From NCBI GenBank assembly GCA_000004695.1, contig CM000151.3:6176001-6240000 (forward strand): DNA of 64,000 nt, given 5' to 3'. The notes below the pieces were generated by a model. It was given only the letters and a program-made list of their open reading frames with translations. It made no database searches and was not told the origin of the DNA. Below are positions 6,055-11,416 of the stretch, one piece after another; within the stretch, counting starts at the first letter, position 1, and every line of letters begins with the position of its first letter. Made by a program: the position numbers and the translations under genes. This DNA comes from Dictyostelium discoideum (taxonomy: Eukaryota).

Positions 6055-6223
6055 ATTATTATTATTTTTAAAAATTACATAACAATTTTTATTATTTATT
6101 TAAAATTTACTTATTGAATATTTGTACAACAAAAATGGTAAAAGATCATCAATCCCAGTTTCCTTCAATTCATCAAAATTGAACTATGTAATATATGGTG
6201 AATATAGGTATTAAAATTGAAGA

Positions 6224-6479
6224 TGTAATAAAGTTACTCTATAAAATTAATAGATATTAAATATGCATATTACATTACTAATTATAGTTGACACACATTT
6301 AAATAATATAATAATAATACTGTCAACTCATTATAAATAATATAAATACTAAAGAATAATTTTATTAACAATATTGAATATCATAAATATAAACTAATAT
6401 TAAATAAAGATAACAAAGTATTATTCAATTATATAATTATTAATTATATATATTTATAAAGCTAACAAGCTTTATTACA
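6224..6479 (+). repeat. 5' LTR of the DGLT-A-like element, complete
   Basis: Direct repeat of 8576..8813. Terminal inverted repeat TGTAATAAAG/CTTTATTACA. Immediately followed by a putative primer-binding site TTTGGCGACATCG at 6480 onward. Confidence 0.8.
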
Positions 6480-6623
6480 TTTGGCGACATCGTCTTTCAA
6501 AAAAAAAAAAAAAAAAAAAAAATATATTATAAATATAAAGTTATCAAATTATTCAATCAATTAAAATTTTACATTAGATTAAATTTAATTTAATAAAATC
6601 TTAAAAAAAAAAAAAAAAAAAAA

Positions 6624-6668
<45 letters not shown>

Positions 6669-6671
<3 letters not shown>

Positions 6672-7946
6672 AGTAATAATGAAAACGTAATTTTTTCGGG
6701 TGATGGAAAAGGTTTATCATTTCGTAAATTCAAACACTTACTCTTATTAATTCATGGCGAGGAAATATCGAAAGCTGATATTATTAGAAAACTAAGAAAC
6801 AATGCATTGGAATATGCCGCAACATTGGATACAGACTTAACAGCAATGGAGATAATTGAAGATCTTAAAGATGCTTTTGGTATTGGTGATAGTGATGATT
6901 TAACAGAATTAACAAAGTTGGGAGAATATAAATACAATACATTAGATATATTAATTGGTAAATTTCTATCAAAATGTTCAGCAGTTGATATTTCAGAAAA
7001 GTTTAAAATACAATTGTTTTATTCAGCTGTTGGTACTGAATTGGGTATTGAAATTACAAAATGTGCACCAAAATCATTAAAAAGAGCAATAGATATTGCA
7101 AAGTCTTGTGAAGATGGTTCAATTCGTATCAAAGGTAGATCAATGTACACTGGTCAATTAGTTGCAAAGACGTTGCAAGAATTTGGTAATCAAAGATATC
7201 TAGGTTCGGGTTCTGGTTATTCTGCAACATCCCCTCAATATGTTACATCTCAAAACGAACAACAATCAATTGAATCTGAAGAAATTTCAACACCAATTTT
7301 TAAAAATCAATATTATAATCGATCACCACAAATGTCACCACAATCATCCCCTTATAAAGCACCACAAAATCAAGTAAATTCAATCACAAAATTTTGTAAA
7401 TATTGCAAAAAGAAAGGTCATGTAATTCAAGAGTGTTGGTCAAAAGATAAAAATAATAATAACAATTACAATAATAGAACTAATTCAATTACAATGGTCA
7501 ATAATAGTACAATTAATTCAATTGGAATAGATAGTATGAATGCAGCTTTATTAATAAATAATAAAAATGTTAGAGGTTTGATTGATACTGGTTCATCACT
7601 TACTATTGTTTGGGAAAGTATTGCTAAAAAGTTAAAATTAAAGATTGAAAATAAACAATATTCTGTTAAATCAGCATCAAATAATGAAATCAAAATCATT
7701 GGAATAAGTAACACAACAATTAAATTAGGTAAAGCATTGGCTAGAGTTAAAGTTAATGTTGTTAAAGATAATGATACATCAATTGATTGTATATTTGGCA
7801 TTGATACAATAATTGGATTAAATTTAGTCATTGATTTTAAAGAAATGATCATTAAGAATCTTGAATTCAATGTTGGTACCAAATTAATATCTAAAGAAAC
7901 CCAACCATGTATACAAACTATATTTAAAACAGTATCTGATTATTCA

Positions 7947-7977
<31 letters not shown>

Positions 7978-8438
7978 CATCAAAATCAGAATTATTAACA
8001 GATACTGATCATTTAATTGAAAATTTTAATTCTCATCATATACTATCAATCAAATCGTGTCCAACTATTGAAGAACAACTACCAATAGATTACGATATTC
8101 CAGAATTCTTATTCCAAGAACCAATAGATTCACCAATAACATCAAATTTACCATTAAAATCAATATCATTAAATCAAACAGAGAATTCAATAATTAAATC
8201 ACAAATAACCTCAATTCAACCATTAATAAGAAATCCATGTACAAATTTATCAAGATTAGATTTTGCTCATAATTTCGCCCAAATTGTAAATAATAACCTC
8301 AAACGTCCTTGTCTCATTAAGGATAATCTTGGTAAAGACCAATTATCACAAATTAATAAAAAAAGTTTCTCGTTCAAATATTCAAGTAGGAGATTATGTC
8401 TATTTACAATCCACTGTTGGTCCAGTAAAGCTCAATAA
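6669..8438 (+). CDS. Gag-protease polyprotein of the LTR retrotransposon, truncated, with RT/RNase H missing
   Basis: CCHC zinc knuckle CKYCKKKGHVIQEC. Retroviral aspartic protease motif LIDTGSS. The ORF then runs into sequence with no RT motifs and terminates. Confidence 0.7.
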
Positions 8439-8813: not shown

Positions 8814-9145
8814 TTTTTTTTTTTTTTTTTGAATTGGATAACGCAATTATTATTTGCTTCTCCTTGAGATGCTAGATCTCATTTTATTTTTTTTTTTTTT
8901 TTACAGGGTCTTTTTGATTAAAACATCTTTTTTGTCCAAACTTTTTTCTAAATCTTTTTTTATTTTATCGTCTGGTTCGTGATTGATGTTTATGACGTAT
9001 TTGAATTGTTTTTTTTTTTTTAATTGAGTTTTATCCACAATTTCGCTTATTTTTTGTAGGCATTTGTGTTGCTTAATATTTGTGGTGTTGTTTGTGATTT
9101 TCATTTTATTTTCTTTCTATCTTTTTTATTTTTCTGATTAACTTG

Positions 9146-9217
<72 letters not shown>

Positions 9218-10940
9218 TATTAAGAAAAAGTAACTGAAGTGAATTATTGTATTTTTTTGAGATGTTTTAGGAAAGTTTCTAATTGCGGGGTGTTGAATGA
9301 ATGATTTTGTGACAACCCCTTGTCTTGTTTTTATCAATTGGTGCGTGGTGTGTTATTTTGTTTTTATATTGTTGATTTATTGAGTAAATTTTATTTGTTT
9401 TTATATTTGTTTCAGTTAGAAGTGCTGCGTCCAAGCTTGTTGTTGTCTAAAACGGTGTTTATTATGCTGGCAGATTGGATGGTGTTGGATCCTTGGACGT
9501 TCCAAACACATATTCTTATTGTGTTTTTCTTTATAGTTTTATTTGGGGTAGATTTTTATCTACCTTTTGAAGTTTCTGGTTTATTTTGTCTTCTAACTGA
9601 TCTTTACTTTGTTCGTTGTGTTGTTGGTCTTGTGTGTTTGTGGGGTTTTTTGATTTATTGATTTGTTTTAGAATTTCCTTGTTGAAGTTGTCTATATCTT
9701 CATCCATTTTTGTTTTTATGCTTTTTTGTCCATATTCACCCAATTTTGGTTTGACTGGTGTTTTGTTGGTCTTGTTTGTTTTGTCTTGTTGTTTCTTTTT
9801 TGGTGTGTTTAACAATTTACTTGGTGAATCGATAATTTTCGATGGTGTACCATAGGTTGGGCTGAAACTCATGATATGTTTTATTGGAGAGGAGAAGAAC
9901 CATTGATTTGAAGGGATTGAAAGTGGGAATTCTATTTTTCTTATTGCATCAGTGTTTGGGCTGGTGAAGTCGAAGATATCATTTACCTCTCTAAGTTTTT
10001 CTTCCGTTGTTAGTCTCTTTGTTTCGCCGTGTTGTTTTATTGGTGTATTGTATGGAGATGGTGGTTCAATAGGTTTTTCTGATTTTGTTTTAATTTCTTG
10101 ATTTTTTATCGATTGGGTATTGATCTCATTCTCTATTCTTGTTAGTTCATCTACGTTTTCTAGTGATGCATCTATTACCTTTTGAGCTGTATCATCTAGG
10201 GCCATAAATGTTTTATCATTAGATGAGGAGGTGATTGGTGGGATAATGATTGTTCTTTTTCCTTGTTTTGGTATTTGTTCTGATGTAGATTTTGGTTGTT
10301 GTTCATCTGATTGTTTTTTATTTTTGTTTTCTTCTTGATTTTCTGGTAATGAGGTTTGATCTCTCCATCCTTTGTTGGAGTGACCAATTAATGTTAGATT
10401 GTCTAGTTCAATGATAGTGTCAAATTCTTCTACGACTCTTTTCACTGTTTTGATAATTAGAGTTTCGCCTTTAATTTCTGATTTAATTAGTTTACATCCT
10501 TCATTTTCTATTACCCATTCTATTTCTGTGAGTGATTTATACCAATCAAAATCTGTATACATATTTTTTGGTCTTATAGTGGTTATAAATTGTCCTTTTA
10601 ATTCTGCATCAAACATATTTACAAAATAGATTACTGTACTAATACTGTCTGTGAGAATTTTGAATGTATTATTACTTTTGATTAAAACATCTTTTTTGTC
10701 CAAACTTTTTTCTAAATCTTTTTTTATTTTATCGTCTGGTTCGTGATTGATGTTTATGACGTATTTGAATTGTTTTTTTTTTAATTGAGTTTTATCCACA
10801 ATTTCGCTTATTTTTTGTAGGCATTTGTGTTGCTTAATATTTGTGGTGTTGTTTGTGATTTTCATTTTATTTTCTTTCTATTTTTTATATTTTTCTTTAA
10901 AAAGTTAAAAATCTGGAAATTTTCTGATTAACTTGGTTCC

Positions 10941-10996
<56 letters not shown>

Positions 10997-11266
10997 TCTT
11001 TTTTATATGAAAAATGAAATAATCAAAAAAAGAGATTGTTGTTGTTGTTTGTTTTTTTTCGATCTGATTATTTTTTGCTTTTTTTTGAAAATTTTGCTAC
11101 GCAAAATTCTCAAAACGAAACAAATAATAAATTACAATAAAGTAAAAAGATGGCTTTTTAAGATAGTTTATTTATTTATTTATTTGTTTTTTAAGTCTTT
11201 TTTATATGAAAAATGAAATAATCAAAAAAAGAGATTGTTGTTGTTGTTTGTTTTTTTTCGATCTCC
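8814..11266 (-). mobile_element. TRE5-A-like non-LTR, tRNA-targeted retrotransposon, non-autonomous with ORF1 only, nested in the LTR
   Basis: Poly(A) tail, seen as 17 T on the plus strand, at 8814..8830. A 15-bp TSD TATATATTTATAAAG at 8799..8813 and 11267..11281. The 5' end lies exactly 47 bp upstream of the tRNA-Arg start. Internal direct repeats of about 200 bp (8920..9120 and 10670..10870, B-module-like) each contain the ORF1 start and each is preceded by a long oligo(A) (9150..9212 and 10942..10993). The 5' A-module-like region carries an 80-bp tandem duplication (10997..11075 and 11192..11270). Confidence 0.6.
9531..10865 (-). CDS. TRE5-A-like ORF1 protein, 444 aa, lysine/glutamate-rich
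   Basis: Intact ORF on the element sense strand. Its first 66 codons are duplicated at 8901..9104 as part of the 3' B-module-like copy. The size fits my recollection of a roughly 51-kDa TRE5-A ORF1 product. Confidence 0.55.
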   Translation of the reverse strand: MKITNNTTNIKQHKCLQKISEIVDKTQLKKKQFKYVININHEPDDKIKKDLEKSLDKKDVLIKSNNTFKILTDSISTVIYFVNMFDAELKGQFITTIRPKNMYTDFDWYKSLTEIEWVIENEGCKLIKSEIKGETLIIKTVKRVVEEFDTIIELDNLTLIGHSNKGWRDQTSLPENQEENKNKKQSDEQQPKSTSEQIPKQGKRTIIIPPITSSSNDKTFMALDDTAQKVIDASLENVDELTRIENEINTQSIKNQEIKTKSEKPIEPPSPYNTPIKQHGETKRLTTEEKLREVNDIFDFTSPNTDAIRKIEFPLSIPSNQWFFSSPIKHIMSFSPTYGTPSKIIDSPSKLLNTPKKKQQDKTNKTNKTPVKPKLGEYGQKSIKTKMDEDIDNFNKEILKQINKSKNPTNTQDQQHNEQSKDQLEDKINQKLQKVDKNLPQIKL

Positions 11267-11313
11267 TATATATTTATAAAGCTAACAAGCTTTATTACAA
11301 AGAATTCATCAAA

Positions 11314-11386
11314 GCCCGTTTAGCAAAGTTGGAATTGCGGCAGCCTTCTAAGCTGCAGGTCGTGGGATCGAGACCCACAATGGGTG
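11314..11386 (+). tRNA. tRNA-Arg, anticodon UCU
   Basis: Cloverleaf: acceptor GCCCGTT/AATGGGT with two G-U pairs, D arm GCAA-AGTTGGAA-TTGC, anticodon stem GCAGC/GCTGC with loop CTTCTAA, T arm GTGGG-ATCGAGA-CCCAC, and a TTTTT terminator at 11389..11393. An identical copy lies on the minus strand at 51036..51108. Confidence 0.8.
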
Positions 11387-11416
11387 AATTTTTATGGGGA
11401 GAAAAGCAAAATCGTA

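Follow-up and report, generated by a model that had tools for sequence, protein, structure and literature searches.

Two tRNA-targeted retrotransposons nested upstream of a tRNA-Arg(UCU) gene in the Dictyostelium discoideum AX4 reference genome

The stretch of 64,000 nucleotides analysed here (the window) belongs to chromosome 2 of D. discoideum AX4; the genes DDB_G0276009 and DDB_G0276011 lie in the region and their protein matches are exact. Upstream of a tRNA-Arg(UCU) gene, an ortholog of which was found in all five other assemblies, an LTR retrotransposon is interrupted in its 3′ LTR by a non-LTR element (Table 1). The end of the LTR is separated from the tRNA gene by 14 bp, and the 5′ end of the non-LTR element by 47 bp.

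Table 1. Features of the nested locus, in order along the window; element names follow the assignments supported by sequence.
Feature	Position	Strand	Basis or remark
Left 4-bp TSD of DGLT-A, AAGA	6220..6223	+	Single AAGA in empty allele of L018
5′ LTR of DGLT-A, 256 bp, TGTAAT...ATTACA termini (TG...CA)	6224..6479	+	
DGLT-A primer-binding site TGGCGACATCGTCTTTC	6482..6498	+	2 bp 3′ of LTR
DGLT-A gag-protease ORF, 589 aa, DDB_G0276009	6669..8438	+	Exact match P0031
Integrase C-terminus remnant, SH3_Tf2-1-like	8329..8580	+	Pfam PF24626, 3.7e-5, under curated cutoff
Polypurine tract AAAAGGGGGGGA	8562..8573	+	2 bp 5′ of 3′ LTR
3′ LTR of DGLT-A, distal 238 bp	8576..8813	+	Final 15 bp (8799-8813) are left TRE5-A TSD copy
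TRE5-A.2 poly(A) tail, A17 (T17 on plus strand)	8814..8830	-	
TRE5-A.2 3′ UTR, including last ~64 nt of ORF2	8831..9287	-	Alignment to full-length copy
Shortened C-module with TRE5-A.2-specific ~71-bp BC deletion	~8831-8911	-	
3′ B-module	8912-9135	-	
A65 run	9148-9212	-	Within TRE5-A.2 3′ UTR
Junction of 3,133-bp deletion removing ORF2 (APE-RT)	9287..9288	-	Three-way alignment with L019 TRE5-A.1 (5,642 bp)
TRE5-A ORF1, 444 aa, DDB_G0276011	9531..10865	-	Exact match P0020
5′ B-module, containing ORF1 start codon	10676-10896	-	
A49 run preceding A-module region	10945-10993	-	
A-module region, 199-bp unit plus partial second unit	10994..11266	-	199-bp repeat spacing
Right 15-bp TSD copy of TRE5-A (LTR sequence)	11267..11281	+	
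3′ LTR of DGLT-A, proximal 18 bp, ends CA	11282..11299	+	
Right 4-bp TSD of DGLT-A, AAGA	11300..11303	+	
Target gene tRNA-Arg(UCU), anticodon TCT	11314..11386	+	ARAGORN

Sequence features support the identification of the LTR element as a shortened, internally deleted 2.6-kb copy of DGLT-A (Dictyostelium gypsy-like transposon A, solo LTRs of which were once named H3R), an assignment based on published diagnostic strings and architecture together with multi-copy relatives. The LTRs resemble those of DGLT-A in their TG...CA termini and in length (~256-268 bp), and the rejoined 3′ LTR (238 + 18 bp) is identical to the 5′ LTR at 256 of 256 positions. For DGLT-A, the identical primer-binding string has been printed with the same 2-bp spacing after the left LTR, and a polypurine tract 5′ of the right LTR has been described (PMC5006619); the DGLT-A elements at L001, L023 and L024 contain the primer-binding string as well. 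As in DGLT-A, the open reading frame encodes a CX2CX4HX4C gag knuckle (CKYCKKKGHVIQEC, nucleotides 7395-7436) and an aspartic protease, with a DTG motif at residue 306 and Pfam matches to Asp_protease_2 (6.6e-11) and gag-asp_proteas (1.2e-9), and it continues into the internal deletion junction. The window's DGLT-A yielded no Pfam match to RT, RNase H or rve and is therefore a deletion derivative without RT, RNase H and integrase core rather than a complete member. Its length is 2,608 bp, in contrast to 5,054 bp for the published consensus, and it does not carry the single Ty3/gypsy-type ORF of DGLT-A, which runs gag-PR-RT-RNH-IN and has no chromodomain. A chromodomain likewise gave no Pfam match in this copy, an absence that is not diagnostic in a truncated element.

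The same 2.6-kb derivative recurs at 97-99% identity 14 bp from a tRNA-Ile gene (L001) and 28 bp from a tRNA-Val gene (L023), in both cases with 4-bp TSDs and identical LTR pairs, and a solo DGLT-A LTR is located 13 bp from a tRNA gene in L007. The distance of 14 bp in the window falls within the 13-33 bp (mean 15) at which DGLT-A integrates upstream of tRNA genes (PMC5006619). Altogether, the derivative is present at no fewer than four tRNA genes, and the three copies measured have LTR pairs that are 100% identical and fresh 4-bp TSDs, which would imply recent mobilisation in trans. The derivative thus looks like a trans-mobilised non-autonomous subfamily; in the limited literature examined, no description of it as such was found. 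AX4 is said to contain no full-length DGLT-A (PMC5006619). Non-autonomous DGLT-A would hence have been mobilised in a genome reported without a full-length member.

The inserted element spans positions 8814-11266 (2,453 bp) on the minus strand, with its 5′ end, GGAGATCG..., at 11266. Its organization supports an assignment to TRE5-A.2 (once DRE), a non-autonomous derivative of TRE5-A.1, on the basis of published architecture and multi-copy relatives. Like TRE5-A.2, the element displays the order AB-ORF1-BC with a duplicated B-module, a 444-residue ORF1, a poly(A) tail and a TSD, which is of variable length in this family and 15 bp here; ORF2 is lost, and the 5′ end faces the tRNA gene in divergent orientation. 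Defining traits of TRE5-A.2 are this modular structure, a large ORF2 deletion and, when set against TRE5-A.1, the loss of 72 bp from the BC-module; the A-module is a 200-bp promoter (PMC3159450). In agreement, alignment to a full-length copy of 5,642 bp at the locus L019 of a long-read assembly shows 3,133 bp and 71 bp to be missing, and the TRE5-A.2 at L019 has both of these deletions. The two B-modules are 98-100% identical to each other, and ORF1 is 98-99% identical to a multi-copy D. discoideum family; it has no Pfam family, which agrees with the published TRE5-A ORF1. Relatives of 96-98% identity are found in divergent orientation 42-48 bp from tRNA-His, Val, Thr and Ser genes, and the full-length ones (5,642 bp, compared with 5,647 bp for the published consensus) encode a 1,047-residue ORF2 with RT (RVT_1).

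The 15-bp TSD of this element, TATATATTTATAAAG, is exact at 8799-8813 and 11267-11281 and consists of LTR sequence. Apart from these two sites, the 64 kb contain just one further copy, in the intact 5′ LTR (6447-6461), giving a total of three against 0 expected in 100 shuffles. Because the LTR is split and the TSD is made of LTR sequence, DGLT-A inserted first and TRE5-A second, as the original prediction had read it. The positions that it gave for the AAGA duplication, for the two parts of the split LTR and for the offsets of 14 and 47 bp agree with ours; the 15-bp duplication is likewise exact, but its right copy is displaced by one nucleotide from the 11268-11282 implied. The elements named there as DGLT-A-like and TRE5-A-like are supported in these identities by the exact primer-binding site, the TRE5-A.2 deletions and the related copies near other tRNA genes, and the distance windows given there correspond to the literature (13-33 bp for DGLT-A; 47±3 bp for TRE5-A). 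One might ask whether TRE5-A already resided in DGLT-A before the latter transposed, so that the nest arrived as one unit. We found no evidence for such an arrival, and it is extremely improbable: the interruption is confined to the 3′ LTR, whereas copying by reverse transcription would have left the two LTRs the same; LTR sequence forms the TSD on either side of the TRE, the 5′ end of which lies exactly 47 bp from the tRNA gene; and the 3′ LTRs of three other copies of the derivative are intact and uninterrupted.

The orthologous empty site of the wild D. discoideum isolate L018, ...ATTGAAGATTACATCAAAGCCCG, contains AAGA once and lacks any element, which confirms the 4-bp TSD independently; in all, empty alleles were found in wild isolates and in D. 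citrinum. On the basis of these data, we propose that the locus very probably arose by successive retrotransposition events, all directed to the RNA polymerase III complex of a single tRNA-Arg(UCU) gene. A non-autonomous 2.6-kb Ty3/gypsy-type DGLT-A (LTR, PBS, gag-PR, IN remnant, PPT, LTR) would have inserted 14 bp ahead of the 5′ end of the mature tRNA, creating the 4-bp TSD, with integrase supplied in trans since the copy has no RT, RNase H or integrase core of its own. A non-autonomous TRE5-A.2 would then have integrated by target-primed reverse transcription with the ORF2 protein of TRE5-A.1, its 5′ end facing the tRNA at 47 bp. As the DGLT-A LTR already occupied this position, the staggered nicks would have fallen 18 and 33 bp within the LTR, so that 15 bp of LTR were duplicated. 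Published work suggests mobilisation in trans for both elements, and targeting through TFIIIC/Tfc4 for DGLT-A and through an ORF1p-TFIIIB contact for TRE5-A: DGLT-A has been reported to contact Tfc4 of TFIIIC (PMC6101501), the TRE5-A ORF1 protein binds TFIIIB, and TRE5-A.2 is mobilised in trans by the TRE5-A.1 ORF2 protein (PMC3159450, PMC5391098). Since either element finds its site by distance from the Pol III complex, a later insertion falls inside or beside an earlier one. The notion that the two elements resolved competition for the target by stacking is accordingly a gloss that names no mechanism; the arrangement is the expected outcome of distance-dependent, sequence-independent targeting.

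The long-read assembly of a near-identical lab strain (L019, GCA_054883475.1; presumably AX2-214, PMC12745789) contains two tandem TRE5-A elements at this site. From the tRNA gene outwards, it displays 14 bp, 18 bp of LTR, the 15-mer, a TRE5-A.1 (5,642 bp), the 15-mer, a TRE5-A.2 (2,386 bp), the 15-mer and the remaining LTR. The tandem very probably arose when a full-length TRE5-A.1 re-hit the same 15 bp in the NC4 lab lineage. The flanks are essentially identical to the window, with eight clustered substitutions in 4.7 kb and none in 1.27 kb of DGLT-A. The window's TRE5-A is a block mosaic of the two L019 copies (blocks 1-385, 656-844, 884-1282 and 1472-end) with three switches. When positions 9140-9560 are compared with the TRE5-A.2 copies of the L019 assembly, each of these reaches only ~91-92% identity and requires 14-15 gap openings, and all of them align to this stretch in almost the same way. 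The window's TRE5-A may therefore not correspond, base for base, to any single real element, and has probably arisen from two tandem copies by collapse or recombination. We lean slightly towards a collapse during assembly of the Sanger-era AX4 reference, in which case the nest is real but the true locus would be a triple stack of TRE5-A.1 by the tRNA gene, TRE5-A.2 and LTR: the tandem with three 15-mers sits between matching flanks, the four blocks are read-sized, the stretch 9140-9560 is divergent and gap-rich, and the ORF1 protein P0020 occurs on no contig other than the window's own. Yet real differences could exist, given that AX2 and AX4 have been separate as lab lineages and that TRE5-A moves in culture, and the equation of GCA_054883475.1 with AX2-214 is itself presumptive. 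Homologous recombination with conversion tracts between the tandem copies in the AX3/AX4 lineage, with deletion of ~5.7 kb, would instead make the single TRE5-A.2 real. Direct repeats 5.6 kb apart are good substrates, and the 5′ junction at 11266 is that of copy 1, the ORF2 and BC deletions those of copy 2; this origin is nevertheless rather unlikely, as a single crossover predicts one switch rather than three and the indel-rich stretch resembles poor sequence, not biology.

The literature already covers the families, their offsets, their non-autonomous derivatives and tRNA genes occupied more than once, and the sequence itself belongs to the annotated AX4 reference; the locus is a clean example of well-described biology, presents no new phenomenon and leaves current understanding unchanged. 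It illustrates that DGLT-A and TRE5-A choose sites by distance from a Pol III gene and not by DNA sequence, the later element reaching its canonical offset even where this falls inside another transposon. Caution is warranted with the Sanger-era AX4 reference, where collapse or chimerism may affect TRE5-A copies, and copy-level analyses of AX4 TRE5-A (SNPs, ORF1 variants, insertion counts) need a long-read cross-check. Two points, taken jointly, may be unreported, which we suggest only tentatively: two independent TRE5-A insertions (.2 then.1) sharing one 15-bp duplication in three copies at L019, and the recent trans-mobilisation of the non-autonomous 2.6-kb DGLT-A. If the former holds, TRE5-A re-nicked both strands at identical nucleotides relative to the tRNA, indicating single-nucleotide precision of the TFIIIB-measured target even within foreign (LTR) DNA.

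The element described here differs from TRE5-A.2 as known so far in that its target was the LTR of another tRNA-targeted element rather than plain upstream DNA, and in that the AX4 copy combines blocks of two copies that lie side by side in the sister-strain assembly. Published cases include TRE-TRE tandems at tRNA genes that an element had occupied before (PMC5391098), and the locus resembles both these and yeast Ty3 in its repeated fixed-distance hits on one Pol III gene, whatever is present there. Unlike in the TRE-TRE tandems, TRE5-A integrated into the earlier element, because DGLT-A (14 bp) lies nearer the tRNA than the preferred TRE5-A site (47 bp). The position of DGLT-A itself mimics that of Ty3, which integrates ~15 bp upstream of the mature 5′ end and contacts TFIIIB (PMC6101501).

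The two nested elements upstream of tRNA-Arg(UCU), predicted originally from the sequence alone, are present in the window (table). For the outer DGLT-A, the predicted long terminal repeat (LTR) and AAGA coordinates were borne out: the halves of the interrupted 3′ LTR rejoin to a full copy of the 5′ LTR and AAGA stands at both ends. The distances of 14 bp and 47 bp from the tRNA to the LTR end and to the 5′ end of the inner element are likewise correct. The predicted 15-bp target-site duplication (TSD) exists as exact copies on both sides of the inner element, but the right copy had been placed one base off. 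This 15-mer occurs three times in the 64 kb, the third time in the intact 5′ LTR, versus zero occurrences in 100 shuffles; the window is AT-rich (22.7% G+C). The two large open reading frames of the region are matched exactly at the protein level by the adjacent AX4 chromosome 2 genes DDB_G0276009 (589 aa) and DDB_G0276011 (444 aa), and the nest is therefore annotated reference-genome sequence.

Features of the nest in the window, of related DGLT-A copies at other tRNA loci (L001, L023, L024) and of the tandem at the orthologous locus L019
Feature	Position	Size	tRNA and distance	Remarks
Window, DGLT-A 5′ LTR	6224-6479	256 bp		TGTAAT...ATTACA
Window, DGLT-A 3′ LTR, split	8576-8813 + 11282-11299		14 bp from LTR end to tRNA-Arg(UCU)	Rejoined, 256/256 identical to 5′ LTR
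Window, DGLT-A TSD AAGA	6220-6223 and 11300-11303			Both sides of DGLT-A
Window, inner element (assigned to TRE5-A.2)	8814-11266, minus strand	2,453 bp	47 bp from 5′ end to tRNA-Arg(UCU)	Between LTR halves; A17 end (T17 on plus strand)
Window, TSD TATATATTTATAAAG	8799-8813 and 11267-11281	15 bp		Flanks inner element
Window, tRNA-Arg(UCU)	11314-11386
L001 DGLT-A copy	7569-10162		tRNA-Ile, 14 bp	5′ LTR toward tRNA; TSD TTTC; LTR pair 256/256
L023 DGLT-A copy	8565-11192		tRNA-Val, 28 bp	3′ LTR toward tRNA; TSD ACGG; LTR pair 268/268
L024 DGLT-A copy	8583-11172		tRNA-Ile, ~3.4 kb away including TRE5-A fragments	3′ LTR toward tRNA
L019, order from tRNA outward	12935-21040			tRNA, 14 bp, 18 bp LTR, 15-mer, TRE5-A.1, 15-mer, TRE5-A.2, 15-mer, LTR rest
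L019 TRE5-A.1 (copy 1, proximal)		5,642 bp		5′ end GGAGATCG...
L019 TRE5-A.2 (copy 2)		2,386 bp		5′ end GGAAAAAAAC...

Downstream of tRNA-Arg(UCU), GGTTCGATTCC occurs at 11417-11427 and 11460-11470, 31 and 74 bp from the gene, each copy embedded in an exact 16-bp repeat AGGTTCGATTCCTAGT; both copies look like the external B boxes that Dictyostelium tRNA genes typically carry. The downstream side of the tRNA is free of TRE3 elements. A second tRNA-Arg(UCU), identical in sequence (51029-51101, minus strand), carries neither DGLT-A nor TRE5-A upstream (51102-51500) and serves as a natural, unoccupied control; no further copy of either family was found elsewhere in the 64-kb window. About 312 bp upstream of this second gene lies a 30-bp palindrome with TGTAAT...ATTACA termini (~51414-51443).

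The predicted families, DGLT-A and TRE5-A, are supported by published diagnostics and by related genomic copies, which were located through protein searches and by looking up loci that encode an exactly matching protein. The outer element agrees in several features with the DGLT-A description. Its primer-binding site TGGCGACATCGTCTTTC starts two bases past the left LTR, the same string and spacing as given by Spaller et al. 2016 (PMC5006619), and a polypurine tract AAAAGGGGGGGA precedes the right LTR (8562-8573). The reading frame encodes a CX2CX4HX4C knuckle (aa 243-256), as described for DGLT-A gag, and a DTG aspartic protease (Pfam 6.6e-11), and a remnant of the SH3-like integrase C terminus lies in a different frame from gag-protease. 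Reverse transcriptase, RNase H and the integrase core are absent from this copy, which measures 2,608 bp versus a published consensus of 5,054 bp. The source protein names, all 'hypothetical protein' or 'Peptidase A2 domain', gave no family identification.

Three further loci hold copies of this 2.6-kb derivative that align over its whole length at 97-99% identity, which brings the number of different tRNA genes where it is found to four (window, L001, L023 and L024); the primer-binding site TGGCGACATCGTCTTTC is common to the three additional copies. Both orientations occur, with the 5′ LTR toward the tRNA in L001 and the 3′ LTR in the window and L023. The distances of 14 bp (L001), 28 bp (L023) and 13 bp for a solo LTR next to tRNA-Glu (L007) all fall inside the published DGLT-A window of 13-33 bp (PMC5006619). 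In each of the three derivative copies checked (window, L001 and L023) the two LTRs match at 100% and the TSD is 4 bp long. Such features at different tRNA genes point to mobilization in trans; the derivative has thus apparently been moved despite the reported absence of full-length DGLT-A from AX4 (PMC5006619).

Judged by its architecture and deletions, the inner element is well accounted for as TRE5-A.2, which is organized as AB-ORF1-BC (PMC3159450). It has one 199-bp A-module unit plus part of a second, two B-module copies (10676-10896 and 8912-9135), the 5′ one containing the ORF1 start, and a shortened C-module followed by poly(A). Alignment to a full-length relative of 5,642 bp, close to the published consensus of 5,647 bp, shows two deletions: 3,133 bp spanning ORF2 and another 71 bp in the BC region. 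Exactly this pair is named in the literature as the diagnostic of TRE5-A.2 (PMC3159450). No Pfam family was found for its ORF1, as published for TRE5-A ORF1. This ORF1 is a member of a family present in multiple copies in D. discoideum; in the full-length members it is followed by a 1,047-aa RVT_1 ORF2. Copies of 96-98% identity stand, all in divergent orientation, next to four other tRNA genes, at 48 bp (tRNA-His), 45 bp (tRNA-Val), 46-47 bp (tRNA-Thr) and 42 bp (tRNA-Ser); the preference given in the literature is 47±3 bp. The copy 48 bp from tRNA-His (L002:6225-7813) is a TRE5-A.2 in which the 199-bp A-module, a promoter unit, is repeated in tandem about eight times, where one or two units are usual. 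Homopolymer runs of 65 nt (9148-9212) and 49 nt (10945-10993) lie just upstream of each B-module copy in the window. As their lengths vary between copies and assemblies, both runs are likely hotspots of sequencing and assembly error.

TRE5-A interrupts only the 3′ LTR, its TSD is composed of LTR sequence, and excising it with one TSD copy restores a perfect DGLT-A LTR. These observations support the original order of events, with the LTR element first and the poly(A) element second, in situ; for the first two reasons, together with the 47-bp distance and the uninterrupted 3′ LTRs of the three other derivative copies, arrival of both as one unit was rejected. Orthologous loci were reached via homologues of the flanking amidase gene (the flanking genes contain introns), and the site proved empty both in D. 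citrinum and in two wild isolates of D. discoideum. In one isolate (L018) it reads ...ATTGAAGATTACATCAAAGCCCG, with one AAGA. The other isolate (L020) is empty apart from an ~81-bp TRE5-A C-module-like fragment (12905-12985, 81% identity) ~114 bp upstream of the tRNA. Upstream homology between strains is lost ~35-40 bp from the tRNA, which possibly reflects past TRE5 traffic. D. cf. discoideum carries an apparently intact Ty3/gypsy-type element 11 bp upstream of the orthologous tRNA-Arg(UCU) (L021:12963-18993), with identical 300-bp LTRs and a called product of 1,494 aa containing protease, RT, RNase H and integrase. With unrelated LTRs, ~25% identity in gag-protease and a distance of 11 versus 14 bp, it is not the insertion seen in the window but an independent hit on the same tRNA gene in a sister lineage.

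The flanks of L019 (GCA_054883475.1, which we infer to be the AX2-214 long-read genome from PMC12745789) are essentially identical to the window, and DGLT-A and the LTR breakpoint are the same, but two TRE5-A elements stand there in tandem. The proximal TRE5-A.1 should be the younger, because TRE5-A inserts at ~47 bp. The 15-bp TSD CTTTATAAATATATA is found three times (12967, 18624 and 21025), and these identical copies indicate that exactly the same target served for two independent insertions. In the window, the single TRE5-A shares its 5′ junction with copy 1 and its deletions with copy 2, and its informative sites fall into four blocks that follow now one copy, now the other. Furthermore, alignments of 9140-9560 with each TRE5-A.2 of the L019 assembly reach only ~91-92% identity and open 14-15 gaps. 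Together, the mosaic and this indel-rich stretch of ~400 bp suggest collapsed or low-quality reference sequence, and we regard an assembly collapse of the tandem as the most likely reading; the same mosaic could come from a real recombinant, which we consider less likely. The nest is real under either the collapse or the recombinant reading, and the locus probably records three insertion events, not two.

According to the literature, DGLT-A RNase H and the integrase N terminus bind the TFIIIC subunit Tfc4 (PMC6101501). For TRE5-A, the binding partner of ORF1p is TFIIIB, and integration takes place immediately upstream of the TFIIIB footprint (PMC3159450, PMC5391098). Applied to this locus, Tfc4 would have guided DGLT-A and TFIIIB TRE5-A. 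Since neither element reads a target sequence, a second arrival would land at its own offset, whatever DNA is found there. The proposal that the elements resolved competition by stacking describes this outcome but supplies no mechanism.

The triple identical TSD, the apparently trans-mobilized 2.6-kb DGLT-A with identical LTRs and the probable reference collapse are mild residual points. Otherwise, the reference genome, the families, their offsets and their behaviour were already known: ORF2p of TRE5-A.1 mobilizes TRE5-A.2 in trans (PMC3159450, PMC5391098), and multiple occupancy of tRNA genes as well as TRE-TRE tandems have been published (PMC5391098).
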